Below are positions 886 through 60,218 of a stretch of DNA of 64,000 bases, in pieces. This DNA is from Mobula hypostoma. Lineage: Eukaryota. The notes under the pieces are model-generated. The model was not told the DNA's origin, made no database searches, and saw only the letters and a list, made by a program, of their open reading frames with translations. The stretch covers positions 74,154,001 to 74,218,000 of the forward strand of contig NC_086108.1 of assembly GCF_963921235.1 (NCBI RefSeq), given 5' to 3'. The stretch's first letter is position 1, and every line of letters starts with the position of its first letter. Both the position numbers and the translations under genes were made by a program.

Positions 886-3800
886 GTAAGTTTATTTTTC
901 TGTTTAAACTCAACTTTGCCTTGGAGGAATTCTAATTTTCATCAAATATTGTCTTTTTTCTCTGTTCAGACTTAAAATAAGGTTTCAAACATTTATCAGT
1001 ATATATTTCACCATCATATATTTACTACTACTTACCGCCTGTTATGCTGCTAGTCCTCCATCTCTGGCGGTGTTTTGGCAGGGTTTTGGCCTGAAATATC
1101 GGCTATACTCTTTTCCTAGATGCTGCCTGGAGTTCCTCGAGCACTTAGTGTGCGTTGCTGAAAGATCATATTATGTGGCTTGATCAAAATGAGTGAGGGA
1201 GTCTGTGAGTAATACAGTTTTTAAAATGTTTCATCTGGTATCTATCTCTTGTGATGTTTGAATTGAGTGATGTTCACAGTTTTGAAGGCGATATCAAACA
1301 CGTGGCTACAGTACATAATGCAAGCACAAATCTCTCTGTGCTGTAATGCACCTCAAATCCAATCTCAGAAAGCCACTAATTCATCACCTGGCTCAGCCAT
1401 TATATTAACCAAGTTGGGGTTTGTCGTTTAATGAATTTTCCTGATATCCAGGTTCTAATCAGGAATTATCATGAAAGAAAGCAGTGTGAATAGTGAATGT
1501 CATAGAGCACTAATAGAGTCATAGAGCACTACAGCACTGAAACAGCCCCTTCAGCCTAAGTAGTCCACGCCAAACCTTTAATCTGCCTACTCCCATCAAA
1601 CTGCATCCAAATCAGAGCCCTCCCATTCATGTACCTCTCCGATATTCTCTTAAATGTTGAAGTCAAACCTGCATCCCCCACTTTTGCTGGCAGCTCATTC
1701 CACACTCGCACAACCCTGTGAGTGAAGAAGTTCTTCCTCACGTACCCCTTAAACATTTCACCTTTCACCCTTAACCCATGACCACTAGTTCTAGTCTTAC
1801 CCAATCTCAGTGGAAAAAGCCTGCTTATATTTACCCTATCTATGCTCCTCATAATTTTGTATATCTCTATCAAATCTCCTCTCAATCTTCTAAATTCTAG
1901 GGAATAAAATTCTAACCTATTCAGCCTTTCCCTATAACTCAGGTCCTCAAGTCCCAGCAACATCCTGGTAAATTTTCTCTGCACTCTTTCAATCTTATTT
2001 ACATCTTTTCTGTTAGTAAGTGACCAAAACTGGACACAGTACTCTGAATTAGGCCTCACCATCTTCTTATACAATTTCAACATAACATCCCAACTCTTGT
2101 ACTCAATACTTTTACTTACGAAGCCCAATGTGCCAAAAGCTTTTTTATGACCCAATCTACCTGTGATGCCACTTTCAAAGAACTATGGAACTGTATTCCC
2201 AGATCCCTCGGCTCTACCTCACTCCTGAATGCCTTCCCGCTCACCGTGTAAGAACTCCCAGAGTGCAGCGCCTCACACGTGTCTGCATTTAATTTCATCT
2301 GCCATTTTTCAGCCCATTTCACCAGCTGGTCCAGATCCTGCTGCAAGCTTTGATTGTCTTCCTCACTGTCCACTACATCCCCAATCTTGGTGTCATCTAC
2401 AAATTTGCTGATCCAGGAAACTACATCATCATCCAGATCATTGATATAGACGACAAACAATGGACCCAACACTGATCCTTACAGCACACCACCAGTCCAG
2501 GCCTCCAGTCAGACAGGCAACCATCTACAACCACTCTCTGGCTTCTTCCACAAAGTCAATGTCTAATCCAATTTACTACCTCATCTTGAATGCCGAGCAA
2601 CTGAACCTTTTTGATCAACCTCCCATGCAGGACCTGGTCAAAGCCCTTGCTATAATCCATATAGACAACATCCATTGCCTTGCCTTCATTGACTTTCCAG
2701 ACCTGGCATAGATGTAGCATCTTTCATAAGATCAGGGCAAACCAAAATGCTTCACAACTAATGAAGTGGCAATTAAATATCTATAATTGATGTTATAGTT
2801 TTGGAAAGGCAGCTGCAAATCTATTTTAAGGCCGGTCCAAAAAACAGCAAGATCATTATCTAAGGGATTCTGATTGAGAAATACCTTTGGGCAAAAAATA
2901 TGGTAATTAATCCTTGCCTGAAAGACCAGATATCATTCAAAAGAGAGAACATTTGTCCGTGTCCTGCTCCCTCAGTATTAAACTGCAGTGTGTGCTATTT
3001 TTTTGTGTGCGTTCAAGTCTCGGCAGTGAGACTTCTGACTCAGTCATGGCTATTCCTGTGAGACAACTGAAGCTTCTATTTCACTGCTTGGCAGTTCTTT
3101 TAGTGTCACACATTCTCAACTGCAGAAGCAGCCTCAAAAGACCTTCCCCTCTACATCCACCTTTACAATCATATGTTTCCTTTTAGTCTCAAAACATCAT
3201 TTTCCAAGTGCCACAAAAAAATCTGGAAGGCCATTCTGTATGACACCATGAATGTACAGAAATTCTTGCAGAAAAGTAGAAATGAAAATTCATCTGGAGT
3301 GATATTGTTGCTCCAGCATTTTATCCAGGTCCCAAGGATAAATTAGAGCAGATAGACAATAGTCATATTGCACAGAAGGCAGTTTCTTTGTCCCAACGCG
3401 CCCAAGCCAGTCATCAGGTTTTCTCTGCTAATCCCATTTTCCAGCATCAACTCATAGGCATCAATGCCATGGTGTTTCAAGTGCTCATCTGAATACTTGC
3501 AAAAATGCTGCTCCGGGGAGGAGGTTCTTGTGGATAAGGAATATTCTCATTTGGTGGATATCACCAATAGGATGAAAGTCAGCTGATCAATGACAGTGGT
3601 TACTAAGAGAGAAAGTCGTCCATTTCAGAACATCCCAAAGCACTTAACAATCAACATATTGTTTATGAACTGTAATTACCATTGTTATGCAGGCTTGCAC
3701 AATAAGCCCCCAGAACAAAGGAATAATAACTAAATGGCATGCTTTTGAAATCTTGATGTACAAACGTATGTTTACATATTAGCAGGATAAATCATGGGGC

Positions 3801-6800
3801 CTTGTTTCTCCACTTGATAAAGCAGGTAGGACCCACTTCCACATCTAATCTAGGAAACTGCACTGGGGTATCAAAGTTAATTTTTGTTCTTACCTTAGGG
3901 TAGTATAGGAACATGAGGCATCCAACAGACAAAAACACTTCAATCTGCTCATACACAGGAATTCTGCAGATGCTGGAAATTCAAGCAACACACATCAAAG
4001 TTGCTGGTGAACGCAGGAGGCCAGGCAGCATCTCTAGGAAGAGGTGCAGTCGACGTTTCAGGCCGAGACCCTTCGTCAGGACTAACTGAAGGAAGTGTGA
4101 GTAAAAGATTTCCAATCTGCTCATGCTGCAATGATCAAATATTTATATTTCAACAGGTATGCAGCTTGTAGGAATGATCGGACCTGTGTGAGAAACTGGC
4201 TCACTGATTGGGAATGGAACGATCAAGGAAATCACTGCAGAAATGAATGTGTTCCCTACCATGAGGTAAGAATAGTAGCATTATATAAATATGACCATTA
4301 GTAGTTTTTGGAGATAAATACAAATATACTTCAAAGGGGTAGAACTTGAATTGATTAATTATATTCATTGTTAGGCAGTACTCTTAGTTTGAAAATTTAA
4401 AAATTGTTCACACTGAAATTATGAACTAAAAAGCTAAAATGCTGGAAACTCAAGGTTAGGCAACAACTATGGACAGAGAAAGAGTCTTAACATTTCAGGT
4501 CAAGAATCATTTATCACAACCTTCTGTAACTCTTTCCAACTAAAAGTCTGCAGATTCTGGGTCAAGTGAAATATTGAAGATTGTGCTATTATTGTTAAAT
4601 AATGGTGTCAGGGCATATGGACCAAAGATAGATAAATGGAGTTAATGTGTAGAGCAATCACATTATTCTATTTGTTGCAGAAACCACTCAATTTTTATTT
4701 CCTTTCACCTATAGTTCAAAAATTGGGGAGCGATCAACTTTATTCTGTTCAGCAAGGAAAGCTTCAAGAGGAAAGGTTGTACATGTCCTTCTTTGTGATG
4801 GAGATACATTTGTAGATAGATAGATATGTCATCGATCCCAAAGGAAATTACAGTGTCACAGTACAAGTTCACAGATAAACAATATTAGAAGATTAGTAAG
4901 AAGAATAAATAAAAAATAAGTTATCTTGAATAGTCTAACAGGAGGGGATCATCACTTCCCTGGTTAGAGGTTGACTCATTATAGAGCCTATTAGAATGAC
5001 CTCATATAGCGCTCTTCGGAGCAGCGCAGCTGTCTTAGTCTATTACTGGAAGTGCTCTTCTGAACAGCCAAGGTGGCATGCAGAGGGAGAGGAATATTGT
5101 CCAGAATTGCCAGGATTTTCCATAGGGCCTTTTGTTCTATCACAGCCTCCAGTGTGTCCAGTTTGACTCCAATTACAGAGCCAGCCTTTCTAATCAGTTT
5201 ATTGAGCCTGTTGGCATCACCTGCGTTGATGCCATAGCCCCAGCACACTACCAATTAGAAGACTGTACTGGTGACAACAGACTGGAGAACATGCGTTAAG
5301 GTGCTGCTGCAATGGCCCAGGTGGGTAACTATAGTGCATTTTGTAAATGGTGCACAACTTCCAATAGTTTTGGAAGAAATATTGCCTCATGTGGTCTCAC
5401 CCTCCTGCCTTGGGCTTCGTAAATGGTCAAACAGCACTTATAGCATAGGAAGATGTGTTATCCATCTCAAAATACTCAGCCATTGACATACTGTTGTAGC
5501 CTTTGTATTAATGTGGCTGGCCGGATGTTTTTCATCAGTAGTGACCCTGAAGAATTTGGTGGCGTGTCTCAGAAATAAGGATGTAGTCAAACAGACTCTC
5601 TCTGTTTGGAGACGGACATTAACGGTACTTCTGTTGTACATGCCACATACTGACCGATGCCTGGATGTTTTGTAGGACTTGCTATACACAATCATCGATT
5701 ATTCCTTTTTTGAGATGTGAATGGTATTAAATATTATACAGTCTTTAGCAAACATCCTCACTTCTGACCTTATCATAGAAGGAAGGTTATCAATAAAGCA
5801 ACTGAAGAAGTTTCAGTTATGACATTGCCTTGCAGTTCCATAACTGACTTCAATTGACCACAACCACTTCCATTCAGTAACTCATCACCTTATTTGCTGC
5901 CACACTTGATCAAATACTGCCTTTATGTCAATGCGAATCATCTCACCTTACATCCAGAATTTAGTTCTCCCATCCATGCTTTGGCTATGGTTGTGATGTT
6001 ATCAGCAGATGATGAGACCCTGAAGAAACAGAATATACGTAGGTGACCCTCATCAGTCTTGATGAGATGCCTTGAGAACTTATACTTGATAGCACTGGTG
6101 ACACAATCTCGAGTCATTTTGCTGATTATTTTTGTAAACTTTTTGAGTGGCATTTAGCCAAAAATTGACTTGCCCTCCATTCTGGGGATTTGATTCTTCT
6201 GGGAATTTTTCCAGGCTATCTGCTGGAGACTGTTGTTACAAAATGCACTGAAACAACTTGCTTGATCTGTTCTTTTTTCTTCTGATAAGATTGCGGCTTG
6301 CTCATTCGCAGCAACCACTCCGGGTCCAATCAAAAATGTATTTGTTTGTCTTGAATGTCTTTTTTATGATTGTAAACTACTGCTGGATACTAAGAACATC
6401 AAGTACTACAAAACTATCCCATCAGCAAGTTGCTTGATAGTATGGAGCTGGACTTATGCCGTACTGTTGTTATGTTGTTGCCTGGGCTTGTTGCATACCG
6501 TTGTGCTGAGGTGATACACAATCTAACAAACTGAGTGAGTGGTTATCTTGTGCATTTTTATTGTGATCACAAGACCTTGTTGGACTTTGGTAACATAGAA
6601 TACTGCAAGTCCAGTTCATTGGTTCATTGGCAACACTGACGGTGAGGGAGCTGCAGTGCCTCAGTTGTGGCCAAGACTAGGCGGAAGCTGCCATGTCACC
6701 TATTGCAACCGCCCAGAGGAGGAGAGCCAAGGCGGGGTGGGGAGAGTGGGGACCTCTGTGGGGTGGACTGGAACTGATACGGGGTTGGGGTTGGCCCCAG

Positions 6801-9800
6801 CCATCAGTGTTGCTGTCTGGTATTCTCTCAGTGTTGCTCTCCAGTGTTCCGTCAGTGCTGGTCTCAGAGGAAGAACATGCTGGACCAGGGCAATCTAGTC
6901 ATGCCACTCAGGGACTTGGGCTATATTATTTTTCTTTCTCTGTGACTACATGTTTTTCTGAAATTGTAACTATATAATCTATTTGTTATGTAAGACCATA
7001 AGACAGAGGAACAGAATTAGGCCACCTGGCCCATCGAGTCTGCTCCGCCATTCAATCATGGCTGATTATTTTTTCTATCTCCTCCTCAACCCGTTACCGG
7101 CCTTCTCCCCGTAACCTTCGATGCCATGTCCAATCAAGAACTTATCAATCTCTGCCTGAAATACACCCAAAGACCTGGCCTCCACAGCTGCATGTGACAA
7201 CAAATTCCACAAATTCACCACCCTTTGGCTAAAGAAATTTCTCCACATCTCTGTTTTGAAAGGGCACCCCTCTATCCTGAGGCTGTGCCCTCTTGTCCTA
7301 GACTCTCCTTCCATGGGAAATATCCCTTCCACATCTACTCTGTCTGGGCCTTTCAACATTCGAAAGGTTTCAATGAGCTACCCCTCATCCTTCTGAATTC
7401 CGGTGAGTACAGACCCAGAGCCATTAAACATTCCTCATATAATAACCCATTCATTCCTGGAATCATCCTTGTGAACCTCCTCTGGACCCTCTCCAATGCC
7501 AGCACATCTTTTCTAAGTTGAGGGGCCCAAAACTGTTCAAAATACTCAAGCTGCAGCCTCACAAGTGCCTTATAAATCCTCAGCATCACATCCCTGCTCT
7601 TGTATTCTAGACCTCTTAATATGAATGCCAACAGGGCATTTCCCTTCCTCACCACCAACTCAACCTGCAAGTTAACCTTTAGGGTGTATGTAGTGTGCTC
7701 TTTGCTGTTGGCTGTGTGTTTTGCATCCTGGTCCCAAAGGAATGCTGTTTCTTTTGGCCATGTGCATGTGTAGCTGAATGATAATTAAATTTGAACTTGA
7801 ACTTTAGCTGGTGTTGGAGTGTCTTTGATGTATCTAGTGCATCTTGATTTCATGTCAAATTAATCAATATGGCTGAACACAGGCTTCTGTGATGACAAAG
7901 ATCACAGGAAGAAGCCGAGACTGATTCGCCAGTCGGTACTTCTGACTGAATATGATTGCAAGTGCTTTAGCTTTGTCTCCAGAAATCACACCTGGACATT
8001 CTACCCCATTCACGCAAGGTGTAACGCAAGTGCAGCTCTTTCATGCACGGTACTCTGTTGTCATGGGGTCACTTGCCTCTGTAAATCACATTACACACAC
8101 AAAATGCTGGAGGAACTCAATGGGCCAGGCAGCATCTATGGAAGAAAGTACAGTTGACGTTTCAGGCCAAGACCCTTCGGCAGGCTGTTTTTGCTGCTCA
8201 GCAAACATTCAGCCCTGAGTTACATTTTCACCCAGTTGGCATTTCACTTTGAGATAATCCAGAAAGTAAAAAAAAACACTGCACGAGAAAGTAGGTACAG
8301 CAGCCTCAGAACTCACACCATCAGGTTCAGCAACAGTTATTCCCCCTCAACCAACAGGCTCTTGAACAACAGGGGATAACAAATAAACTCTTTTTGGGCT
8401 TCAAGCCAGGTACAGGTATCAATTATAACTGACGTTTCAATGATATCAATTTATCTGCACTGTAGATAAAATTGTAGATGCTTGTTCACTGGATGTATGC
8501 TTAAGAGGCATTTTGTTAGTGTGCACCATGTGTTTTCTTCCGAAATTACTAATTGTAGTTAAAGTGGTGTTCCTGTAAGTACAAGGCTAAGCAACAGCTT
8601 CCATTGGAAAATACTGTTTTAAATGAAATTATCTGGCTACTCCTAACCCACGTAAATTTCTATTTTTCCCTACCAATTCTGCTTAGACTTATCGATTAGA
8701 ACCAAAATTTTGATGACAAACTCTGCCATCTTCTTCAGGGATAATGGCTGGGTATGTCTAGTCCAGTGGTATTTATACCCCAGGATTCTGTCCCTCCTGA
8801 TAGGTTAGTCTCAACCAATCAGGTTTCCACTCTATCACATTGTTTACAATCAACTTCCAGTTCTTACTCAGAGTGAGACTTTCATTGTTATTAAAACCTT
8901 TTCCTGTAGTTTTATTTCAATGGCTCCTTTCACCAGGTGGTCCCAAAAGCCTTTGGTGTGTCACAGTAGTTTTGTGCCATTGAAATCGGGACTGTTCACC
9001 TGCCAGCCCTCTCATCTCCTAGTGACTGGGAGTACATTGACATGTCCACCACTACCCAAGGTGAACTCATTTCATGAAGGAACACTGTGAAGCAGATCAA
9101 GAAATACAACAAACTATCCAAACAAAATGCAGCCACCCTACCATTGGACCCAGAAAGGATTGTCATCAATCAAAACGGGCAAAGCATTCACAAGGCGACT
9201 AGATTGGTCCTCGCCAAGGGGCTAAAATTCTCTCTGGTCCCCAGAGTTATACCTTAATGGGACTACATTGGCGGAGTAGAGCAAGCAATTCGAAAACTAC
9301 TACCAGATACCATGGAGGAGGTAAGGATAGAGGTCTGTATGGCCAGAAAAAGAGCCGTTTCGCCAAAACTGAACATTACATTCTAGGCACTATGGCAAAA
9401 CCAGCCATCATGATTTTACCAGCGGACAAAGAAAATGCAATGGTCCTGAGGTCCTCTGAGGAGTATCACGGGAAAATCCAATAGGTTCTGGACAATCCCA
9501 CCTACAGAGTTCTATAGCAGGATCCCACGGATTCAACTGTCAGGATGACCTGTACTTCACTGAAGAAATATGCAAGCCACTTCTGCTTCAGGTGCTGGCA
9601 CCACCAAGACTTTGGACATTATAGTCAGTTTCAACGTGGTGTCCTTGTTCACAAGGGTTCCCATCAAGGACAGCTTGGTTCTCCTGTGGTCAAGGTTTGA
9701 TAAGGGCACTATTGACCTTTTTGAATACACCCTTGCATCGATGTACTTCCTCTATAAGAGGAACTATGATGAACAAATGGACGCAGTGGCCATGGGGTCA

Positions 9801-12800
9801 CTTGTCATCGGCGTTTGCTAATTTCAACATGGAGGACTTTGAGAAGAAGGCTCCAAGTTCATTGCCTTTAAGCCTCAAATGCTTCTTCAGACATCTTCAC
9901 AGTGTGACCTCATGGACTCCAGGCACGACATTCCTACAGAATAGCTACAAAGTGAAGGAAATCACCTTAAAAGAGCTGACAGAAAAACCAGGAAACCTAA
10001 CAACTATTTCTACTGTTTCTAGAAGGATCATGAGGATCCTGAAGAAATACCAGATTAATACCATCCACAAACCTGTAAGGAAGCTCAAATCACAGCTTAT
10101 GTGGGTCAAAGATGACCTGGGACTCAGGTCGGCTGGTGTTTACAGGATACCCTGTGAATGCGGAGCAGCGTATATCGGCCAGACGGGACGCATGGTGCAA
10201 ACCTGCATTAAGGAGCATCGGAGGTGTATCCATTTTGGTTACCCAGAGAAATCAGCGATGGCCATAGGATTGACTTTGATGACACAAAACTACTGTGCCA
10301 CACCAATGGCCTTTGGAACCGCCTGGTAAAGGAAGCCATTGAAATAAAACTAGAGGAACAGAATTTTTAACAAAGGCGAAGTTCTCACTCTAAGTAACAA
10401 TTGGAATTTGATTGTAAACAAGGTGAGAAAGTAGAAACCTGACTAGATGAGGACTAACCTATCAGGAAGGACGGACTAAATACCACCGGATAGACATCCC
10501 TAGGCATCATCCCTGAAGAAGGTGGCAGAGTTCGTCATAGACATGTTGATTATAATCGATAATTGTACCCAGCTGGAAGTCTGAGAAGAGTTCATTCGTC
10601 ATATACGCCGGGAAAGCACTAGATTCTTTTTCAAAGGGGATAATTTCACTCAACTTCACTTGCCCTATCATTGAAATGTGCCCACAACCTATGGACTCAC
10701 TTTCAAAGACTCTTCACTTCATGTCCTCGATATTATTATTATTTCTTCCTTTTTGTACTTGCACACTGGTTGAATGCCCAAGTTGGTTGGGTCTTTCATT
10801 GATTCTGTTATGGTTATTCTTTGGATTTAACAAGAAAATGAATCTCAGGGTTGTTTTTGGTGACATTCATGTACTTTGATAATAAATCTACTTTATACCC
10901 TTGAACTTCAAAGAGAAGGATGCATTTGCTCCTTTCACCAGTTTAAAAAAGCTTTAACCAAGAACAAAGGTTGCAAGTGTCCGTAAGTTTGAGGCATCTT
11001 AGGGAAGCATTTATCAAGATGAGGCAGCTATCTTAGATATGCCCTCTAAACCAGAACTCCTTGAACATAGTTGCATTGTTTTGAAGTATTTTTCTTGGAA
11101 TCATTCCATTTCCAAGTAATATTTACATGTACGGTACATTCACACACGATCAGAATACTGTTCCAAGAAAGTTGCAATAACACTTAATTTCTGGAAATGT
11201 AGTTACACATTTAGAAAACATCTGTGAGAACATATTGTGTACAATAATTTTAGTTTGATGGCCCTTCCTTGTACTGTATGTATTTGATTGTTGTGGAGAA
11301 CCTCATTGCCAGGAAAATTACTTGTGGGATTCCACTAAAGCTATGCAGTACTGTACAGAATGATTAACTTTCTTACACTTGAGTGCAATTACTTCTGGTG
11401 AGATCCCAACATTTTAAAAAAATGAAAAATACAGATGTTCCAAGCAAGTACAAATATCCTATTGACATTATCTGGGCCAGATGGACTTTGAACATATGAA
11501 AGCTAGCCAAAACTGTTAACTAGGATTTATGTTGCACTTCATGACAAGATATGTCCCAGTTGCACGATCTTTATAGGTCCATGGAGAGAACAGTTGCAAA
11601 GACACAAGTCAAAAATATCAATGTTTACACCAGAAGCAGTCGTGAAAGCAAGTCGTGAAAGCAAGTCATCCTTAATCTCAAAAGGCAGATAAAAGTAAAA
11701 AGATTATCTTGTTCATTTGCAGCTTAATATTTTAAACCATTAAAAATCCATGCATATTAATCATTTACCTGTAATTGTTAAAAGGGCATGCTGATTAAGT
11801 ATGTTTGTGAACCAAGATTCCTGCACAAATCACTTAGGCTTCCCATTTAGCACCATAAGATGTATTTATTCACTATCCCTATGCTTTCTGTAACCACAAA
11901 CCTTGTTAATGATGGCTCATCTGCCTTCAGTATTGTTTCCAGCAGGACTCTTTTACTTAGGAGCCCAAGCATGGAAGTAAAAAAAAGATTAGTTTTAGTC
12001 CTCAAAAGGATAGAATACTATTGTTGTTATTTTACTCCATATTTGAGGAGAAAATTGAAATCAAATACCAGACAGGAGGAATTCTGCAGATGCTGGAAAT
12101 TCAAGCAACACACATCAAAGTTGCTGGTGAACGCAGCAGGCCAGGCAGCATCTCTAGGAAGAGGTACAGTCTCGGCCTGAAATGTCGACTGTACCTCTTC
12201 CTAGAGATGCTGCCTGGCCTGCTGCGTTCACCAGCAACTTTGATGTGTGTTGATCAAATACCAGGGTTTTCTTTCCATGGAGTTACATTAACTTTCTACA
12301 TGTGAAATAATGGCGCTAATGCTGACTTTGGTTCACTGTTTCTCAGTTTATTTTCAAAGTGATCTGTCATTTTTTTTTGCGCCCTGTAGGAATTTCACAC
12401 AAAGGATTGCTTACAGAATAATATGAGTGTATTTCAAATTAATTAACTATTTGTAAAGTTGTTGGCACTTTTCTGAAAGTATAATCAGGCATTATATATA
12501 TGTAGGCCTTTATCTGTTTCCTTATTCCTTTTTTTTAGTGTCATAGAAAACCACAGCACAGAAATATGCCCCTCAGCCCATCTAGACCTCCATATCCCAC
12601 CCATCCATGTAGCTATCCAAGGATGCCTTCTTTATTACCCTTTCTACTTCTGCTGCACTTTCAAGGAGCCATGGATAGAGCACCCCAAGATCCTTCTGCA
12701 CATCAATGATCCGAAGCTACGTACTGTGTACTTTCCTCTTACATTTGATTTCCCAACATTTCAAACTTGTTTGTATTAATGCACATGGAAATTATAAATG

Positions 12801-18124: not shown

Positions 18125-18164
18125 TCAGTCAACGTTTCGGGCCGGAACCCTTCGTCAGGACTGA
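18125..18164 (-). ncRNA. Minimal type I hammerhead ribozyme motif in the Penelope terminal repeat (GUU triplet)
   Basis: Minus strand UCAGUC-CUGACGA-A-GGG-uuccgg-CCC-GAAAC-GUU-GACUGA; perfect 6-bp stem I and 3-bp stem II. Confidence 0.75.
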
Positions 18165-19131: not shown

Positions 19132-19143
19132 TGGTGTCAGAAG
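19132..19143 (+). other. Primer-binding site, tRNA-Leu type
   Basis: TGGTGTCAGAAG directly after the LTR is complementary to the recalled tRNA-Leu(CAA) 3' end ...CUUCUGACACCA. Confidence 0.8.
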
Positions 19144-22100
19144 AAAAAGCGAAAAATAAAAAGGAAGAGAAGACACGTAAAAGATGTCACAGTTACAGAT
19201 ACTGTAGCCTACAAGGTAAATCTTGCTGAAAACTGGAAAATATGGATCCAGAAGTTTGAGCTGTTTTGCACCGCTAGCAGCCTAGCTGAAAAGACGGAGA
19301 AAGTGCAATGTAATGTCGGCAGAAGCATTCAACTCACTGGACATCAGAGGAAGACTGGAAAAATCCACCTGCAAGCTTGTTGCATATTTCGGCCACGAGA
19401 TGGCGCCACTGGGCAAAAAAGCACTCACCTGTGTATACTAAGGTAAAAAATACAAGATCGAGTTTGAAATAGTACAACAACATGTTTCAGCAATACTGGG
19501 CAAAGCAACATGCACAAAGCTAGGCCTGGTGAAGCAAATCTATGGTGTTAAAAAAGAAAATTACATTCTCAAAGACTTTGATGACTTGTTTTCTGGATAA
19601 GGATGTTTACCAGGAAAACACCATATCAAGATTGATCCAACTATTTCACCAGTCGTGCATGCCCCGAGAAAGATTCCAGTAGCTCTCAGGGATCAAGTAG
19701 TGGAGGAGCTACACAGAATGGAACAGATGGGAGTCATAACAAGACAAATAGAACCGACCGACTGGGTGAATAGTATGGTGACAGTGGTCACAGAAAAAAA
19801 GACGAGGATTTGCATGGATCCACAAGATCTCAACCAAGCCACCAAAAGAGAGCACTATCCGCTGCTCACGGTTGAAGAGGTTGTCTCCCGCATGCCTAAT
19901 GCAAAATACTTTTCAGTATTAGACGCAAATCAAGGCTTCTGGCAGATCAAGCTGGATGAAGAAAGTTCCAAATTATGCACTTTCAACACGCCCATAGGGA
20001 GATATCATTTCCTGCATCTACCCTTTGGGATTTCTTCTGCATCAGAGGTATTCCAGAGATCCGTGGCACAAATGATTGAAGACCTGGACGGGGTGGTCAG
20101 CATCATTGATGATTTGCTGATATGGGGTGACACAAATGAGGAACATGATCAGAGACTGAGGAAGCTCCTGGAGAGAGCACATGAGTACAGCCTAAAACTG
20201 AACAAAAGTAAATGTAAGATCAGAACTACAGAGATCAAATACATAGCTCAGCGCTGATGGGCTAAAACCAGATGATGAAAAGGTCAGAGCTGTGGTACAG
20301 CTACCACCACCCAAAGACAAGCAAGGTTCATGGGCATGCTACAGTATCTTGCCAAATTCATTCCCAACTTATCAGAGGTCAGCGCTCCACTCCGAAAGCT
20401 ACTAGAGAGCAACACTGAATGGCATTGGGAAGACAAACAAAAGAAAAGTTTTGACACATTGAAGCAGTTGGTTATCAATGTACCAGCACTCAAGTTCTAT
20501 GATGTCAATAAACCGGTGACAATGTCTGTGGATGCCAGTTCGCAGGGAATAGGAGCTGTTATACTGCAGGATGGGAGGCCTGTGGCATATGGATCACGAG
20601 CACTTACGCTCAAATCTAGAAGGAATTACTTGCCATAATTCATGGGTGTGAGAAATTCCACCAATATGTATATGGCAAAGAAATCCAGGTTGAGAGTGAT
20701 CATAAACCACTTGACAGCATCTTCAAAAAGCCACTCCACCAAGCTCCTATGAGACTGCAAAGGATGCTTCTCAGGCTACAGAGGTACACGCTCACAGTCA
20801 CCTAGAAGCCAGGAAAAGAACTGCACATTGCTGATGCTGTGAGCTGTGCTTACCTCAAAGAGCAAAAGGAAGAGTTGCTAGGAAGAGAGCTGGAGGTCAA
20901 CTGGGTTACACCTCAGCTACCCATCTCTGAGAAGAAGTTGAACATGTTCAGGAAAGCGACTGCAGATGATCCTGAAATGCGAATGCTAAGAGACATTACA
21001 ATGAATGGATGGCCAGCAGAAAGAAAAGATGTTCCAAAGGAAATACAGAAACACTGGACATTTAAAGAGGAAATCAGCTATGCATCAGGACTAATGTTTA
21101 AAACGGCAAAGCTCATCATACCAAACCAAATGAGACAGGAAATGCTTAACAAAATTCATGAGTCACACCTGGGGATAGTGAAATGTAAAGAAAGAGCAAG
21201 GGACATTCTCTATTGGCCAGGCATGTCAACTCAGATAGAGGACATTGTGTGTCAGTGTGCTGTCTGTAATGAAAACAAAAACAGCAATCCAAGAGAGCCT
21301 CTGCTTCCCCATCCACTACCAGGAAGACCACAGGATAAGAATGGCACAGATCTCTTTCACTACAATGGTACAGAATATCTGCTTTGTGTGGACTACTATT
21401 CAAAATATCCGGAGATCACCAAGTTAAATCCAGTCGAGGTGTCATTACCACAATGAAGTCGACATTCGCAAGACATGGTATTCCAGATATTGTCGTTAGT
21501 GACAATGGTCCACAATATGCCAGTGGTGAGTTCAGAGGGTTCTCAGAAAGCTGGGAATTTCAACATGTTACTTGCAGTCCAGGGCACACCCAGTCTAATG
21601 GACAAGCAGAGAGAACTGTACAAACTGTCAAGAACATGCTCAAGAAGGCACATAGAGCAACGGTGACCCTTGCATTGCTCTGCTTGAATACCACAACACA
21701 CCGATTGAGGGTGTGGGGTTCTGTCCTGCGCACCTGTTGACGGGACGTCATCTGAAGTCCAAACTGCCAACATCCACAACTCTACTGACTCCTGAAGGTA
21801 ATGCTCAAGTACAGGACAAGCAGAAGTACAAGCAAATAAAGCAAAAGAGCTACTATGACTGACATACAAGACAGTTGCCAGATCTGCATACAGGTGAAAA
21901 TGTCAGAATACAGAGAGGAGACACTTGGCAACCAGCTGTGGTTGTGAACAGACATCAGCAACCAAGATCCTTCATAGTTCACACGCCGGATGGAGGAGTC
22001 TACAGGAGGAACAGGAAGCATCTGCTGAAGACAGGCGAGAGGGTGTTTCCACGTACAGATGCACAGGACATTTCCACAGATACAGACATGGAAACAAACG

Positions 22101-22433
22101 ACACCAAGAGTGATGCAGACCACAGAGAGACAGAGGCCACTCAAGAGACTGACACGGATGAAGGACAAACACAGTCACAGTTGTATCACACACGGTCTGG
22201 GAGACAAGTCAAACGTCCAGCTAGATACAGAGACTAATGAAAGGTTTATTAGTCTATGTTAGTAAAAGAAAATACACTGCTGTTAGTATTGTAAGATACA
22301 ATGCAGAATACAGTACAGGAAGGTAAGATTTTTTTTTAGTTTATGTCATAGTTGTTGCACTGTAAGAAGGGCACACCTAGAGGCATTGTTTTGGTAATTC
22401 ACAGTTTTGTAAAGAAAATCTTGAGAAGGGGGA

Positions 22434-22572
22434 TGTAATGTATTGTGTGAGTATTCGTAGCGTCAGAGTGCGTATGGCGTCAGGACGTGGAAAAGGGTTT
22501 TAAAAATGGAAGTCTGGTGAATAAACGGGGTTGTTCAATCTACAGCGGTGTCCGAGTCACATCAATATTACA
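22434..22572 (+). repeat. Gypsy 3' LTR (139 bp) preceded by polypurine tract
   Basis: GAGAAGGGGGA (22423-22433), then TGTAATG...ATTACA. Confidence 0.95.
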
Positions 22573-23669
22573 TTGTATACGGAGGCTGGTGGGGTGGTAG
22601 GTGAGGACAAGGTCCCTGTTGTAGAGGCGGGAGGATGGGGTGAGGGCCGAAGTGCGGGAAATGGAGGAGATGCGGGTGAGGGCATCATTGATGACGGCAG
22701 AAGAGAAACCACAATCCTTAAAGAAAGAGGACATTTGAGATGTCCTGGAACGGAAAGCCTCATCCTGGGAGCAGATGCGGCAGAGACGGTGGAACTGGGA
22801 ATTTTTGCATGTGGCAGGGTGGGAAGAGGTATAGTCGAGGTAGTTATGAGAGTCAGTGGGCTTGTAGAAGATGTCAGTGGACAGTCTGTCTCCAGAGATG
22901 GAGACCGAGAGATCGAGAAATAAAGGACCAGGATCCTATATAGCTGCAACATTACCTCTCGGCTCTTAAACTCGATCCCACGGTTGATGAAGGCCAATGC
23001 ACTGTATGCCTTCTTAACCACACAGTCAATCTGCACAGCAGCTTTGAGTATCCTATGGATTCAGACCCCAAGATCCCTCTGATCCTCCACACTGCCAGCA
23101 GTCTTACCATTAATACTATATTCTGCTATCATATTTGACTACTAAAATGAACCTCCTTATACTTATCTGGGTTAAATTCTATATGCCACTTCTGAGCCCA
23201 GTTTTGCATCCTATCGGTGTCCCGCTGTAACCTTTGACAACCATCCACACTATCCACAACACCCCCAACTTTTGTGTCATCAGCAAATTTACTAACCCAT
23301 CCCTCCACTTCATCATCCAGGTCATTTATAAAAATCACGAAGAGAAGGGGTCCCAGAACAGATCCCTGAGGCACACCACTAGTCACCGACCTCCATGCAG
23401 AACATGACCCATCTACAACCACTCTTTGTCTTCTGTGAACAAGCCGATTCTGGATCTACAAAGCAAGGTCCCCTTGGATCCCATGCCTCCTTACTTTCTC
23501 AATAAGCCTTGCTAGGGGTACCTTATTAAACGCCTTGCTGAAATCCATATACACTACATCCACTGCTCTACTGCAGACAGTTAATTCTCAGAGAGTTAAT
23601 GTCTTGATTTTAAAGTATTTGTTTGCAAATCATACCATGCTTTTGTTCATCTTATCTCCTCATCTAAGT

Positions 23670-25470: not shown

Positions 25471-25479
25471 AGTTTGTGA

Positions 25480-25770
25480 AATATCCGCCACAAGAGGGAC
25501 TTCCTAGTGGCCAAACATTTTAATTCCGATTCCCATTCCTGTTTCGACGTGTCAGTCCATGGCCTCCTCTTGTACCTTCCAGCTGGCCTCCTTCCCCTCC
25601 TCCTTTTTATTCTAGCATCTTCTGCCTTCCTTCTCAGTCCTGAAGAAGGGTCACAACCTGAAATGTCACTGTTTAACCCTTTTCCATTAACGCTGCCTGC
25701 CCTGCTAAGTTCCTCCAGTGTTTAGAGTCTGTTGCTTTCGATTTCCAGCATCTGCAGACTTTCTCGTGTA
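25480..25770 (+). mobile_element. Deleted Penelope 3' fragment with degenerate hammerhead
   Basis: VAKHFNS.SHS..D.SVHGLL remnant followed by CAGTCCTGAAGAAGGGTCACAACCTGAAATGTC (25635-25667). Confidence 0.75.
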
Positions 25771-26590: not shown

Positions 26591-26989
26591 GACTTCTGTC
26601 AAGAAGTCCAAAATCCAATTACAGAGAAAGGAGATGAGACCCAAATGAGGACAGAATTTCTATTTTCCATCCTGATCACTTTCCTTTCTAATTTATCTCC
26701 TCCCATTCCCACAGGCAGTTATCCTTTTTCCAGTCCAGAAAAAGGGTTTTGACCCAAAATGTCACTCTCCATTTGATCTCCCACACTCTTTGCAGATGCT
26801 GCCAGACCCTCCAGCAGTTTGTTTTTGCTCCAGACTCCAACATTTTCAGTCTCTTTTGTCCGTCTTTTCTCTTCACCCTTCAGTTCTGTCTCCTCTTCAC
26901 CCCTTTTGATATCCTTCCTACCCCCAACCCATTTTCCTTCAGATACAGAGCGTACACGTAGTTGAGACACTCCGAACATTTGTTTACTT

Positions 26990-27517: not shown

Positions 27518-30500
27518 GTTGGTACTTGAAGAGATGGTGTTCAGTCGCTTCACAGATGAAAGCTGTTGGCAATGTTCATTGGTTTGGGGAAGGAAAACAG
27601 TAGCGCTGTCAGCATGGGAAAGAGAAGATTCGAGCGCAAATTGTAGGAGAATTTCAAACTTAAAATCCTTCTGTTTAATCAAACTTCTGGTCACATTCTT
27701 TATTTTCATATCTTTGGTTGTTTGGATTAGTAGTCCGTTGCAGGCAGCTGTGTGGTATTAACTCAATAAAGTTACAACACAGGACTCCCTTTAATGTCAA
27801 ACATTGACCAACATGATCAAAATCTGTGTTGCAAAAGGGCAATTATTTGTGGAGTGTACGTTTAAGAGATGTGGATGAATTAGTAAACTAAAGTGTGAGT
27901 GGGTTTCAAGTTTCCCATAATCGTGACCTGTTTATTCTCTAGTCAATGATTTCAGTGCAGTCAACAATAGAAATTAAAATCCGGCATTGGATCCCAACAA
28001 CAGGTCAAGTAGTGATCAAGGGCTGTACTGCCATCATCAGTGTAATGAGTAATAGTATGCACTATTCAAAGGATATTCCTCAACAATGTGCTGGCTTACT
28101 TTGACACGCTTCCCTTTCCGGTCATCTGTATTAACAGGAATAACGACTAGCAGTATCATTAGAGTTATCTCCAAGTTGTCATTCTTATTGGACATATTGA
28201 TCAGCATTCACTTTTAATCTAAATTCCTTCTGGTGATAACATTCTGGGAGCCCACCACCACTTTAGGTCAGATAAGATAGATAGATGGATAGATAACTTA
28301 TTGACCCCAATGGAAATTGCAGTGTCACAGTAGCATTACAAATGCACAGATATACAAATATTAGAAGGGAAATAAGAAAGAATAGAAAATATGTTTACCT
28401 CAAACAGTCTAACAGGAGGGGTCATCAACTTGGCTGTAGGTTGACTCATTATAGAGCCTAATGGCCGAGGGTAAGAATGACCTCATAGAGCACTCTTTGG
28501 AGCAGCACCTTTGCTCAGAAATGATTAAAATCAAATCTTTGATTGTTCCACTGAACTGTTAATTATTATTTTTCACTAATATACCAATAAACATGAGGGA
28601 TATATTAACTGATACACAATGAATTTCAATAAGCGCAGTATATGCTAATGTCTGTCCATTCAATGTCTACAATTAAAACAAAGTGATTTACAGTAGAGCA
28701 ACTGGATTTGCATCCTTCCATTTGGAAGGCCTATCAGAGTGAACCTGGAGTAGAGTCTTCTATTTTGCAAAGAAGAGAAAATCTGCAGATGCTGGAAATC
28801 CAAGCAACATACACAAAATGCTGGAGGAACTCAGCAAGCCAGACAGTATCTATTGAAAAGGGTAAACAATGGACACTTTGGGTGGGTCTCGGCCCAAAAT
28901 ATCAATTTTTTTTTACTTTTTTTTACATTGATGCTGCCTGAGCTGCTGAGTTTCTCCAGCATTTTGTGTGTGTTTGTTCTATGAGTATTGACATCGAAAC
29001 TTTACCCTCACAACAGACTATTGTAAGCTTCAAATACAAGACCTTAATTTGCACTTTCTTTTGTTTACTTTGTCCGCAGGTGTCATCAATGTCAGCATAA
29101 AAAATGTACAAGAATTGATCCTTGCTGCAGATATGTTACAGTTGACTGAGATTGTGAACATGTGTAGTGAATTTTTAAAAGGACAAATTGATCCCTCGAA
29201 CTGTGTTGGAATTTACCAATTTGCTGAGCAAATTGCCTGCCATGACCTTGTGGAATTCAGTGAAAGTTACATTTATGTCCACTTCTTGGAGGTCTGTAAA
29301 ACTGAAGAGTTTATGGGATTAGCAAAAGATCAATTGGTTAAAATTTTAAAAAGTGAAGAACTCCAGATTGAAGATGAATATCAAGTTTTCACAGCTGCAA
29401 TGGAATGGGTTCTCCAGGACATGGTGAAAAGGAAAAAATATGTGATTGAAGTTCTGGATCCTGTTCGATTCCCTTTGCTTTCTTCGCGGAGATTATTCAA
29501 ATATATTGAAGGTATTGTATGAATTTGAGTATTTTGTATTTCCTAGCTGATGTTGCTGATCTTTTCACAATAACATTCAGAAAAGAAACATGATAAATGT
29601 GGAAGTTGTTGTGCACAAATTGTTTGCTGTATTACCCAAAACATAATTAGAGATTATGTCTAATGTGTGGATTCTTCACATTTAAATTTACACAGATTTC
29701 AAAGGAATATATTTTTCTAGAGCTCTTCACACACTGGTGCTTTGGAAAATTATGGTTTGTTGCAGACCACAGAGCTCTTAATCATATGATACGATTATTA
29801 AATAAATAGTTTTCCTATAGAAATAATTATTGTTCACAATCTACATTGCATACTACTTTCCACTTTCATTTTGGATCTTCTTACTGGTATGGTTTCCATT
29901 ACACTGAACTTGCAAATTCCCCACGTGTTGTTAGAATGGGTTGAACTCCAGACCCATGATATTCTCTCATCATTGCTATTGTCAACAATATCACAGGTTG
30001 ACTTCTCTTAACCCTTTGTTGTTAAATTATGCTACTATACCACACCTTGCTGGGAAATTTAAGTTCTTGTGTGAGCTCAAATACCATCTATAAATTTGCT
30101 GATGATATAACCATTGTTGGTAGAACCTCAAATGGAGACAAGAGGGGCTACAGGAGTGAGATATACCAACTAGTGGAGTGATGTCACAGCAACAACCTTG
30201 CATTCAATGTCAGTAAGACGAAAGAGCTGATTGTGGACTTCAGGAAGGGTAAGGCAAAGGAACACATACCAATCATCATAGAGGAATCAGAAGTGGAGAG
30301 TGTGAGCAATTTCAAATTCCTGGGTGTCAGGATCTCTGAGGACCTAACCTGGTCTGGTCCCAGCATATAGATGCAGCTATAAAAAAGGCAAGACAGCAAC
30401 TATACTTCATTAGGAGCTTGAAAAGATTTGGTATGTCAACAAAAACACTCTGAAACTTATATAGGTGTACCGTGGAGAGCTTTCTGACAGGCTGCAACAC

Positions 30501-33500
30501 TGTCTGGTATGGAGGGGTGGGGCTACTGCACAGGACCGAAAGAAGCTGCAGAGGGTTATAAATTTAGTCGGCTCCATCTTGGGTACTAGCCTACAAAATA
30601 CCCAGGACATCTTCAAGGAGTGGTGTCTCAAAAAGGCAGCGTCCATTATTAAGGACGCCCAGCACCCAGGAGCATGCCCTTTTCACATTGTTACCATCAG
30701 GTAGGAGGTACAGAAGCCTGAAGGCACACACTCAGCGATTCAGGAACAGCTTCTTCCCTTCTGCCATCCGATTCTTAAATGGACATTGATCCGAACACTA
30801 CCTCACTTTTTCAATATATATTATTTCTGTTTTTGCACAATTTTTAATTTCTGATACACATACACTGTAATTTATTTAATTATTTATTCTTCTTCTATGT
30901 TTTGTATTACATTAAACTGCTGCTGCTAAGTTAACAAATTTCACGACACATGCCAGTGATAATAAACCTGATTCTGATTCCGAGTTATGACACCTTATCC
31001 TGTTTCTATTTTGTCTTTTAAGTTTTCCCTTCAAGTTATATTCAACAAGGTTCCATCTCATTCTGAGTCTCCCGTTCATTAACATTTCCAAAGGAATATC
31101 ATAAACACAAGAAAGTCTGCAGATGCTGGAAATCCAAAGCAACACACATAAAATGCTGGAAGAACTCAGCAGGTCAGGCAGTATCTATGGAAATGAATAA
31201 ACAGTTGACGTTTTGGGCTGAGACCTTTCTTCAAGCCATAATAGGTCTACGACGGATGCAATCTTACTGGCTCTCCACTCAGCCTTAAATCACCTGTATA
31301 ATAGTAATACCTGTGTCAGCCTTCAACAGAATCATACTTTCAGTTGTAATCAACAAGCTCTATAATCTGAGCCTCTGTACCTCCCTCTGCAACTGGATCC
31401 TTGACTTCCTCACCAGGAGATCAGAGCCTGAGTGGATTGGAAATAACATCTCCTTGCTGCTTGGCATACTGCTCTACTCTGGATACCCAAAAATCTGTGT
31501 GGCTGGGCACAGCTCAAACACCATCTATAAATTTGTGAATGTCACAATATTGTTGGCAGAATTTCAGGTGGTGACAAAAAGGCACAGAGGAGCGAAATAG
31601 ATCAGCTGGTTGAGTGGTGTCGCAACAATAACCTTGCACACGACATCAGTAAATCCAAGGAATTGATTGTGGACTTCAGGAAGGAGAAATTGAGGGAAGA
31701 TACATAAGTCCTCATCAAGGCGTTAGCAGTGGAAAGGGTGAGCAGTTTCAAGTTTCTGGGTGTCAATATCTCTGAAGATTTATCCTGGGCCCAACATACA
31801 AGGAAGACATGACAGTGGTTATATTTAATCAGGAATTTGAGGAGATTTGATATGTCACCAAAGACACTTGCAAATTTCTGCCGATGTACTGTGGAGAATA
31901 TTCTAACTGGTTACATCACAGTCAGATATGGAGGGGCCACTGCATAGGATTGGAAAAAGCTGCAGAAAGTTGTAAACTCATCCAGCTCCATTATGGGCAC
32001 TAGGCTCCCCAGATCGGGGACTCCTTCAAAAGGCGATGCCATTATTAAGGACCTCCCTTGCCCAGGACATGCCCCCTTCTCATTGCTACCATCAAGGCGG
32101 AGGCACAGGAGCTTGATGACACACGCTCAGCGCTTCAGGAAGAGCTTCTTCTTCCCCCACCACCAGGTTCCTGAATGGACAGTGAACCCATAAACACCAC
32201 CTCACTTTTCCCCTTTTTTTTGTACTAATTATTTAATTTAATTAAACTTTTACATACTTATTGTAATTTATAGTTGTTTTATTATTACATATTGCAATGT
32301 ACTGCTCCCGCAAAACAAGAAATTTCACAACATATGCCAGTGATATTAAACCTGATTCTGATTCAGAGGTAATGTTGCAGCTCTATAAAACCCTGGTTAG
32401 ACCACACTTGGAGTATTGTGTTCAGTTCTGGTCACTTCATTAAAGGAAGAATGTGGAAGCTTAAGAGAGAGTGCACCAGCATACTGCCTGGGTTTGAGAG
32501 CATTCCTGATAAGGATAGGTTGAACAAACTAGGGTTTTTCTCTTTGAAGCGGATGAGGGTGAGAGACAAATTGATAGAGGTGTACAAGATGATAAAAGGC
32601 ATGGATTGAGTGGAAAGGCAAAGACTTTTCCCCAGGGCAGAAATAGTTAATACGATGGGGCGTAATTTTAAAATGATTGGAGGAATGTACAGGGGCAATG
32701 TCCGAAGTCAGTTTTTTTTACACAGACTGGTGGCTGTGTGGAAAGTGCTGCCATACATAGAAACATAGAAACATAGAAAATAGGTGCAGGAGTAGGCCAT
32801 TCGGCCCTTCGAGCCTGCACCGCCATTTATTATGATCATGGCTGATCATCCAACTCAGAACCCAGCCTTCCCTCCATACCCCCTGACCCCTGTAGCCACA
32901 AGGGCCATATCTAACTTCCTTTTAAACATAGCTAATGAACTGGCCTCAACAGTTTGCTGTGGCAGAGAATTCCACAGATTCACCACTCTCTGTGTGAAGA
33001 AGTTTTTCCTAACCTCGGTCCTAAAAGGCTTCCCCTCTATCCTCAAACTGGTGGTAAAGGCTGATACATTAAGGAAATCTTTATACAGGCACATGGATGA
33101 CGAACAAAAATTGAGGGTGAAGTGGGAGAATAGAATTAGATTGACCTTAAGAGCAGGTTAAAGGTTGGCACAATATTGTGGGTCATAGGGCCTGTACTGT
33201 GCCGTAATGTTCTATGTTCTATGAGTTTTTCAGACAGATCGTGTTGCGCTAAGATAGATCTTAATTCAATCATAAAGTCCACTGCCATGCAAGATCCGAC
33301 TTATTTGACTTTGAGCTACTTCAGATAACTATCATTTAGTCCCAACAATTGACCCAGCATTCGGACCTTGTGGTAATGAAGTAAGATGGTGCATTTCTGT
33401 GTTAAAAACAGAAATGCCGGTCAAGTAATATCTGTGGAAAACTTTTTTTTGCCTGTTAAGCTGCTGCTGTTTAGAGCAGCAATGGAAGTCCACAACTCTG

Positions 33501-36500
33501 TCTGTCCTTAACTAATTCTGGTCTTGGTTTTGGTCTTGCAATGTTCATGGTCCCCTTCATCATGACAGTAGCTTTCTCTCAGTTGTCCCTGCTGTCAGCT
33601 ATGCAAGCACCTGGTGGAGACTTGGGAATACTATCGCATGCAGATCTAGAAGGATTTTTCATTGCTGTTTGACCAGTCAGTGTTGTTAGCCCTGAGCTAA
33701 ACCCTGAACCTGGAGGACTGGTGGACCACCCTTAGTCTGGCACTACCCTTTGACCTGTTTGGCATGAGTGACCCTACCAAGAGCCAAAGCATAAAGCCTT
33801 GACTCCAACCAACATAGCTCTTTAAGGTGTACAAGCCTCCAAACCACAACAGGGGTATGGTCCTCTTGGAGGATCTGTAGAAAGAGAACCCAATCAATAT
33901 TTCAGGTCGAAGATCCTTCATCAAGAAGCAAGGAAGAGAGAAAGCAAGTTAGTTTAAGTAACAGAGAAAGTGGAAGGCATCGGGTGGAATAAAGGTGTCA
34001 GTAATACAGTGAAATGACAGTTTAGCTCCTTTGTGTAACATTTTGCTAATGTTGTGAAGTCTGGGTGATGCTTTCTGGTCTGGCTTACTAGTATATTCAG
34101 GGCAGACGAGAATATGCAAAAAAAAGGAGAGAGGAATGGCCAGTACTCTGTTTCATTAGGAGTTTGAAGAGATTTAGTTTGTCACCTAAAACACTCGAAA
34201 ACTTCTACAGATGTAACATTGAGAGGCTGCATCATTGTGTGGTATGGGGGTGGGTAGGGGGTGCTACTGCACAGGATTGAAAGAAGCTACAAAAAATTGT
34301 AAAACTAGTCAGCTCCATCATGGGTATGAATCTCCGTAGTAACCAAGACATGTTCAAGGAGCAGTGCGTCAGAAAGGCGACATCCATTATTAAGAACCCC
34401 CATCACCCAGGACATGCCCTCTTCTCATTGTTACCATCAGGAATGAGGTGCAGAAGCCTGAAGGCATACACTCAGAATTCAGTAACAGCTTCTTCCCCTC
34501 TGCCATCTGATTTCTAAATGAACATTGAACCTATGAACACTACCTCACTTATTTTTTATTTGTTTTTTTTGCACTATTTTTAATTTAGCTATTTAATATG
34601 CATGTAGTACTGTAATTGATTTATCTATTTATTTGTTTCTATATTTATCATGTATTGGTTTGTACTGCTGCCACTAAGTTAACAAATTTCACGACATATG
34701 CTGGTGATATTTAACTTGATTCTGAAATGAAAAGTAAGAGCAAGTTATCTAAGTTGAGAAATTCGCTAGTGAGCCCTGCAGACTGCGACATGCTCAGACA
34801 AAAGCTGAGTCATAGAGCAATACAGCATGGGTTCAGGCCCTTCAGCCTAATGGGCTTCGGCTCACTCAGCTCATCCCAGTTTCCTGCATTCAGCCCAAAC
34901 TGCCCAAAATGAGATCAAGTTCGTCGAGCTTGTAGTAGCCCATACATGAGCCAGAGAAGTCAGAGTGGAATGGTGAATAAAAATGGCAGCTTTCCATCTG
35001 TAGTGGGGTTGGGTCCAAAATTCACTGTCTGAAAGAGTGGCAAAGGCAGGATTGCTTACCATGTAAGGTCACATTTGGCTGTGTTGTTTAAAAGCTGTGA
35101 CATGGAGGTTGAGATAAGGTTGGGCAACTCCCCTGTGATCTACAGAACTGTGCAAAAGTCTTAGGCACATATACAGTATATAGCTAGGGTGCCTAAGACA
35201 TTTGCACAATACTGTATTTGTCAACATGGAGCGGAGAGCGAGTGTAAATCTGGCAGGAGCAAAGGATGTTGGAAATGGCGAGGGTGGATTGCTGCAGGAG
35301 TAGTGTGGGACAGGTGGCAGAGAAGGACTGCAATGGGCGAAGAATGGCACTTGTGCCTAAGCGCACAGCCCTAAGACACCAGTCAAGGTCATTTGATTCC
35401 AAACAATTGGTTTATTGATCATTAGAGAATGTCTCTTTGATACCTCCCTCTTCCTTCCCCCTTTCTCTGGCCCCTTTCAGTCCACAATAGAGACCCATTA
35501 TCAGAATCACGTTTATCATCACTCATATATGACCTAATTTTTTTTGCAGCAGGACAGTGCAATACATAAAATTACTACAGTACTGTGCAGAAGTCTTAGG
35601 CACCCTAGCAATGTGTTTGTGCCTGAGACTTTCGCACAGTTCTGTTCACAGTTCATAATGTTAACATGCTTCTGTAGTCAATACACTTGTACATTTTTGG
35701 ATGACAGAAATTTAGTTATCCTGTAAGCCTGTTTGAATATGGTATTTTGCATATTAGCAAATTTGATTGGATAATTCCATCCATAAGTCCACATTTGAAT
35801 CTTTCTGTCAGCGTGTGATCCAAGAATTACAATGTTGTGATGTTTTTCATTACAATTACTCCATCGCTGATCAATTCCCCTGACTTCTGATAGTGGTCCT
35901 GCACTTGCATCACTACATAATTTCTGATGGCTAAGGGTTTGAAGTGATTTTGCAGCTTTTCTGCTATTTTGTTAAATGAGACATTGAATGTAGTAGAAGA
36001 TTCAGTTGATTTGCGAGCATCAGAAATTATTGGGCTCTCTTTCTTCTAAAAGGATCACATTGCATTCATGTATGGCCTTATGGGAGAATCTCTATTGATG
36101 TCTTCAATTTCAGTAATGTTTTTGGCCTAGGAAAATAACTCAGTCTTTTTACTATATGAACTGCAAGGCAGTACTTTGTTGTAGGCTCTGAAATAGATAT
36201 TGCCTTCAGGGACTGGTTTGCTATATTGTATTGTCAACTGCTCTGACAGTTCTGAAGCAAGTATTTTACGAGCAATCAATTTTGTGTTTGTTACTATGTT
36301 TTTGCATGCTCACCTCACCACTTTAACTTGGCATGAGTGAGTTTTTCATATGTGAGAAGATAATTCTTATTGAGATTTAACTTGTCACTTGATGTTCATT
36401 GTCCTTTATTTTGAAATCCGTATTACCAATGCAGAACATGCATTCTCTGTGGTTTTCTATTATCAAACTAAATCCAGTTTCAGAATGGGCGGAAAATACA

Positions 36501-60213: not shown

Positions 60214-60218
60214 CCATT

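Follow-up and report, generated by a model that had tools for sequence, protein, structure and literature searches.

The 64-kb stretch of the Mobula hypostoma genome analysed here (the window, to which all counts refer unless stated otherwise) contains a dispersed family of short repeats built around a hammerhead ribozyme motif. These repeats are very probably dead-on-arrival, 5'-truncated insertions of several subfamilies of a Neptune-type Penelope-like element (PLE). Their anatomy, their ends, their target duplications and their linkage to Neptune coding sequence are established. The ends, fold-backs, tails and target duplications all match the insertion patterns published for 5'-truncated PLEs.

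Results

The family meets its parent at 18067, where the repeat unit is joined to the reverse transcriptase (RT) thumb, the linker and the GIY-YIG endonuclease of a Neptune-type element, in agreement with the Penelope origin proposed in an initial annotation of this DNA. The unit is the terminus of that element, as the annotation also held: the last ~100 nt align with the short copies at 70-87% identity in BLAST pieces. Read on the minus strand, the insertion consists of a tail-less pseudo-long terminal repeat (pLTR), which is the 3' non-coding end of the element (18067..18426; profile and BLAST), a C-X3-C-X2-C linker followed by an endonuclease remnant with a frameshift near 18700 (18427..18990; translation and homologues), and an RT-thumb portion that ends at the 5' truncation point (22577..22925; homologue alignment). 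It is split by a secondary long terminal repeat (LTR) retrotransposon on the plus strand, outside the family, with two ~147-bp LTRs 96% alike and an RVT_1 match (18991..22576; BLAST and Pfam). Excluding this element, the Neptune insert measures ~1.27 kb and is 5'-truncated. It is bounded by a target duplication of 13 bp with one mismatch (18054-18066 / 22926-22938) inside a CR1-type long interspersed nuclear element (LINE), and at the loose contig ends at 18066, in all four sequencing runs described below, the uninterrupted LINE reads through. The region is thus a three-layer insertion, with the LTR element (18991-22576) nested in Neptune and Neptune nested in the LINE.

Fourteen proteins match the Neptune coding sequence, those with a name being from Hypanus and Mobula. 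The RT-thumb piece (22573-22920) and the linker/endonuclease pieces (18430-18977) can be placed, in the same order, on individual homologues that carry a YIDD motif. The GIY-YIG profile of Pfam scores just below its gathering score in three of the five homologues scanned and finds nothing in the broken pieces of the window itself. The linker residues C-K-R-K-C-Y-T-C are encoded in 18699-18989 on the minus strand; a zinc-finger-like CX2-5CxxC linker between RT and endonuclease is a mark of Neptune and Nematis (Craig 2021, PMC8557442). We chose the Neptune clade over Nematis from the vertebrate host and the literature. Two ray gene models, P0001 and P0005 (named kinase-domain protein and mucin-2), contain Neptune RT/endonuclease sequence and are probably annotation artefacts or exonised elements.

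Continuity between the hammerhead terminus and the coding region is also seen in sequencing contigs from four runs of four organisms (42,770 to 83,818 per run, some LINE flank included; depth is not copy number), which cover all 30 bins from the terminus through the endonuclease. Diverged contig pieces bridge the hammerhead and the upstream pLTR (records 17 and 18) as well as the pLTR and the endonuclease (records 1 and 19).

A profile built on five seed copies recovered 13 arms at 11 loci at E <=8.7e-5, whereas the reversed window, used as a decoy, gave zero matches up to E=1. Eight of the arms were non-seed (1080, 4430, 8094, both arms of 12072, both arms of 28772, and 33880), with E values from 2e-21 or better to 8.7e-5. 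The initial annotation had counted about ten or more copies, and 10 of the 11 short loci it listed are confirmed by the profile, together with the shared terminus at 18067. The one that drops out is 16480 (16470..16640, no strand assigned), absent from the matches of a profile of all 13 arms even at E<=5 and no better than shuffles against two reference copies. This locus is an imperfect palindrome with a score of 31, against 30 for the best of 200 shuffles; it resembles a fold-back insert of some age and may be a relic, with no statistical tie to the family. Beyond the range first annotated, a weak candidate copy lies on the plus strand at 40584..40681 (E 0.0047, all-13-arm profile).

The copies do not form one uniform unit of 100-200 bp, as had been thought: pairwise identity over aligned columns runs from 45 to 100% and both ends vary. 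The same spread of identities implies multiple subfamilies and age classes, bearing out the suggestion that copies of several ages are present. The youngest subfamily is represented by loci 3950 and 12072, which are 94-96% alike.

We measured 5' and 3' ends relative to the predicted hammerhead cut site (negative values upstream). Two loci start far upstream: 18067 inside the RT, and 25635 inside the endonuclease. The latter is an older plus-strand stub (25483..25768; BLAST/profile and descriptor) made of an endonuclease remnant (match 25483-25570), a shortened pLTR, a damaged hammerhead (25635-25672) and a tail. The young solo pLTR insert at 3950 (3955..4112, minus strand, 158 bp, with tail) starts at -61, a position bounded by its 14-bp target duplication with one mismatch (3941-3954 / 4113-4126). 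Several stubs follow. Locus 33880 (33864..33951, minus; profile and exon map), whose 3' side is also cut, starts at ~-49 to -82; 26730 (26702..26859, plus; profile search), decayed but with a tail remnant, at -32 to -41; 8094 (8093..8186, minus; profile and end mapping), tail-less and with a mutated core, at -29 to -33, near the 5' strand of stem I; and 31102 (31107..31245, minus; profile and exon map), with a tail and a mutated core, at -27 to -39. In the decayed, tail-less stub at 1080 (1078..1165, plus; profile and end mapping), which has no intact core, the alignment begins at -21, and the old decayed stub at 4430 (4435..4509, minus; profile search) begins at -11 to -17.

The remaining loci, 12072 and 28772, are both head-to-head fold-backs with a tail on a single arm only. 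The insert at 12072 (12072..12252) lies within an exact 12-bp target duplication (12060-12071 / 12253-12264); its tailed left arm, on the minus strand, starts at 0 (0 to +3) and its tail-less right arm, on the plus strand, at -18 (-18 to -15), with a 3-nt microhomology between the arms at the turn. At 28772 (28776..28974; profile, end mapping and exon map), where no intact core is left, the tail is on the left arm, which starts at +6 to +9, and the right arm starts at -20. We considered, and dropped, the rule that fold-backs turn at the cut site: it holds for one of the two (12072, blurred by the microhomology) and not for 28772, because the left arm there aligns from +6/+9, and by eye to ~-12.

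At the 3' side there are two classes of ends. A short class near +64 comprises 1080, 8094, the right arm of 12072, 18067 and the right arm of 28772, and a long class at +95 to +97 comprises 3950, the left arm of 12072, 25635, the left arm of 28772 and 31102, with 26730 in decayed form; 4430 and 33880 are too decayed to be assigned. The difference between the two classes is an optional tail of ~30 nt. At least 11 of the 13 arms span the predicted cut site, so that their templates were most probably RNA molecules that had not been cut. Of the 13 loci tested, three (3950, 12072 and the Neptune insert) are flanked by target duplications of 12-14 bp, which score 11-12 where 300 random pairs reached no more than 10; the other ten gave none.

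A strict hammerhead descriptor matches the window twice, at 4079 and 18158, both on the minus strand, and zero times in 100 Markov simulations. The hammerhead core described in the initial annotation is thus real, although intact in just these two of the 13 arms. The motif at 4047..4084 has CG and a GUC cut triplet after its GAAA, and that at 18126..18163 has a GUU cut triplet. In both, stem I has 5 bp and stem II, closed by a tetraloop, has 4 bp; both contain CUGACGA, a single bulged A and GAAA, and in both a palindromic ACGU replaces helix III, as expected of the minimal type I that had been proposed. A third arm (25640) keeps CUGANGA..GAAA, with the palindrome and stem I damaged; in all, the motif is lost in 11 of the 13 arms. 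An Rfam search gave no hammerhead family match up to E=1, its three rows being sub-threshold microRNA (miRNA) hairpins.

None of nine stem pairs changed on both sides, in seven mostly decayed copies, which are too few sequences for a covariation analysis. Stem II is 92.9% paired across these copies, with a one-sided U-G/U-A change, and the G10.1-C11.1 pair is G-C in 18067 and G-U in 3950 (G-U in four and G-C in two of the seven), as CpG decay would give. Core letters agree with the column consensus at 92 of 102 positions against 576 of 729 in the 3' flank, a contrast that points to selection in master lineages at most, because the arm starts are partly defined by the core and the copies are related. 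Of the 40 best-supported among 240 differences in the contigs of the four runs, two are located in loop II and none in the core. On the favoured reading, the minimal hammerhead is kept in master lineages and decays in stubs.

In monomer folding, both intact motifs are predicted to form a rod, not the active fold, with bases of the core paired to the strand that holds the cut site (z-scores -1.4 and -0.3). The predicted rod is consistent with a motif dependent on a second copy or on a protein, but proves nothing. By analogy with published work on other PLEs, the minimal hammerhead probably cuts only as a dimer or with the help of protein. A separate observation concerns the C at the variable core position: in the predicted monomer folds (18126-18163 and 4047-4084, minus) the core is engaged by the strand of the cut site, which might act as a built-in off state.

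The copies had been described as sitting inside host introns. This holds for three of the ten confirmed short loci (28772, 31102 and 33880) according to the exon map of IPP, whose coding exons on the plus strand lie at 27202-27519, 29058-29516 and 40068-40226 and onward to 49860; the other seven are upstream of the IPP CpG island (~26900-27600) and first coding exon, with 26730 just upstream of the island. The fold-back at 28772 lies between the coding exons 27202-27519 and 29058-29516, while 31102 and 33880 are antisense to IPP. None of the three intronic loci carries an intact sense ribozyme, and both intact motifs are on the minus strand upstream of the CpG island, where no gene was mapped.

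Discussion

The anatomy of the stubs supports the proposal that they were mobilised by the Neptune RT/GIY-YIG protein, and suggests the following course of insertion. The protein would nick target DNA and start reverse transcription inside its own RNA, at one of two start sites ~64 or ~96 nt downstream of the cut site, as the two classes of 3' ends and the analogy with the Anolis Poseidon protein suggest. Reverse transcription would usually end prematurely, in many cases at the hammerhead hairpin or within it, so that stubs of 90-160 bp remain. Where both target strands were extended, the two complementary DNAs (cDNAs) could be joined by microhomology, giving a head-to-head fold-back with a tail on one arm.

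Each of these features has a counterpart in endonuclease-bearing PLEs. Craig 2021 (PMC8557442) describes strong shortening at the 5' side, a truncated partner in inverted orientation and, at one end, a tail of 30-40 bp; Arkhipova 2013 (PMC3846280) describes palindromes joined head to head, inverted pLTRs of which one bears a tail, and pLTRs standing alone. In biochemical work (Frangieh 2024, PMC11167929), the Poseidon protein nicks and extends both strands, two internal RNA start sites delimit the tail, the template is uncut RNA, and the protein assists its own hammerhead, cleavage being dispensable for insertion in vitro. The ray copies resemble such insertions in their variable 5' truncation, in two 3'-end classes ~30 nt apart, in inverted arms with one tail, in solo pLTRs, and in target duplications that are found in some copies only. 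They differ in being very short (90-200 bp), and in clade, Neptune here versus the Poseidon used in biochemistry.

The ribozyme is likewise of a familiar kind. In Cervera and De la Pena 2014 (PMC4209133), most minimal hammerheads are scattered, solitary motifs, "probably related to truncated PLEs", and some are paired on opposite strands. The ray motif shares with theirs type I architecture without helix III, palindromic positions 15.2-16.2, an extra nucleotide between 9 and 10.1, a 5-bp helix I, a place in the pLTR of a Neptune element, and occurrence mostly as dispersed singles with some opposite-strand pairs; its stem II of 4 bp differs from the 7-8 bp of Schistosoma. The searched supplement files of that paper, one file being outside the search, hold no shark, skate or Callorhinchus entries, and in the literature (Repbase and Dfam were outside the search) we found no chondrichthyan account of a Penelope hammerhead, nor any work on non-autonomous Penelope solo pLTRs. 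Our results add a ray Neptune lineage to the PLE hammerheads known since 2014: the repeat and the motif are real, and their kind had already been described.

Several observations weigh against truncated insertion. Short stubs dominate the window: in 11 of the 13 arms the start lies just beyond the cut site or within ~80 nt on its upstream side. Six arms start at ~-39 to -11, a pattern that a distinct family of short elements, or a short transcript, might produce too. The pyrimidine-rich upstream pLTR aligns poorly between subfamilies, and some 5' ends are therefore uncertain. Target duplications, at just three loci, are scarce, and for the youngest subfamily (3950/12072) we saw no master element.

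A different and rather unlikely view of the same ends is that they record the ribozyme in vivo. A fraction of the copies would then be run-off cDNAs from hammerhead-cut RNA, another fraction would have stopped at the hairpin, and the short product may propagate like a short interspersed nuclear element (SINE). The left arm of 12072, which ends at position 0, is an example of a possible run-off cDNA and a weak lead. A genome this rich in short inserts lends itself to a computational histogram of 5' ends around the cut site; if this view were true, such ends would be a single-base, genome-wide read-out of minimal hammerhead cutting during retrotransposition.

It is also improbable that the short copies are a separate SINE-like, non-autonomous family of ~130-160 nt, comprising the hammerhead and the RT-start region and amplified in trans by the Neptune protein. 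The clustering of 5' ends near the 5' edge of the hammerhead would suit such a family; in rotifers, pLTR sequences alone can support integration in trans (Arkhipova 2013, PMC3846280), and monomeric derivatives of pLTR-related retrozymes are dispersed in genomes that include the one chondrichthyan sampled by Li 2026 (bioRxiv 10.64898/2026.07.22.740005). Yet the arms that start near the hammerhead differ in subfamily and in start position, and the near-identical young loci 3950 and 12072 have three distinct 5' ends (-61, -18 and 0). Among the 24 best-supported of 4738 loose contig ends none is a 5' boundary at the hammerhead, in the 18067 subfamily. Because short stubs dominate, six arms start at -39 to -11 and the master of the youngest subfamily was not seen, a non-autonomous lineage keeps a small share of our confidence, which otherwise lies with truncated Neptune insertions.

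The initial annotation had favoured a separate, retrozyme-like mini-element. We found no tandem units and no common 5' end, and two loci run upstream into endonuclease or RT, so that this part of it cannot be upheld. The general idea is already published, because Li 2026 found non-LTR retrozymes in the one chondrichthyan sampled and derives them from pLTRs. The ray copies do resemble animal non-LTR retrozymes (Cervera and de la Pena 2020, PMC7229834; Li, Clavereau and Pollet 2026) in being non-coding and related to PLE pLTRs, in carrying a type I hammerhead and in that they would need a PLE protein to move. Those retrozymes, on the other hand, are tandem units each with a hammerhead, with unit-length linear and circular RNA, while the ray copies are single or inverted, ragged and mostly with dead cores. 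Head-to-tail units with at least two complete hammerheads, the retrozyme hallmark, are absent from the 64-kb window, and in place of a uniform unit length there are ragged 5' ends and two 3' ends. The definition of Cervera 2020 asks for a canonical type I hammerhead with contact between loops 1 and 2, whereas the ray motif is minimal; minimal motifs are also admitted for retrozymes by Li 2026.

We consider it very unlikely that the copies are monomer offspring of a tandem non-LTR retrozyme making circular RNA, even though a type I hammerhead is present and non-LTR retrozymes occur in the one chondrichthyan sampled by Li 2026. A cut monomer should run from one cut site to the next, and in these copies the cut site is internal, the 3' end following 64-97 nt further on; no array of the unit appears among the 10 TRF rows for the window; and the motif is the minimal PLE one, not the canonical type of described animal retrozymes. 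Two joints in run X12 could be read in favour of tandem units. They lead from 18162 to 18115 (depth 179) and from 18162 to 18126 (depth 29), with few letters between; should they run backwards without a switch of strand, they would represent head-to-tail duplications of the ribozyme, 44-50 nt long, in a related organism.

The idea that IPP is regulated by these copies, kept by the host as intronic ribozymes or as genes for hairpin RNAs, is scarcely credible. Although three confirmed loci lie in IPP introns, the fold-backs would form long hairpins (predicted -148.5 and -93.4 kcal/mol) and 12072 has a sub-threshold Rfam miRNA-hairpin match (43.8 bits against a gathering score of 82), the three intronic loci all lack an intact core, two are antisense to IPP, and no compensatory change is found among the seven aligned copies. 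We also rejected 12072 as a miRNA, its Rfam match being explained by the palindrome alone.

Other observations

Exact-pattern scans for further copies returned zero in viral contigs, metagenome contigs and prokaryote genomes. A metagenome scan with the ray Neptune protein gave 29 loci at 40-63% identity, mostly short and uninformative for the ray family, and the contigs concerned contain one minimal hammerhead in 70,236 bases. It may be noted that metagenome contig L013 has a minimal hammerhead with a palindromic AUAU near 1615 on the minus strand; a Neptune-like RT match lies ~1.2 kb away on the other strand.

The window holds a second PLE, of Poseidon type and without the Neptune linker in its endonuclease, as inverted arms at 8600-9000 (minus) and 9300-10620 (plus). 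Both arms have a decayed hammerhead-like motif of their own: the CUGAAGA core occurs near 10513 and again in the inverted arm. Young CR1-type LINE copies at 57469-60234 (minus) and 23965-24951 (plus) are inverted relative to each other and 93-95% alike, one of them with a 921-codon open frame.

As to host genes, the BACK-domain exon of IPP (28992-29519) is 97% identical to IPP of Mobula birostris and 84-93% identical to that of other sharks and skates. A DUF3429 gene lies at 53151-53897 on the minus strand, which we take to be of TMEM69 type. An IPP intron contains a tandem repeat at 45856-46012, with 3.4 copies of a 47-bp unit.

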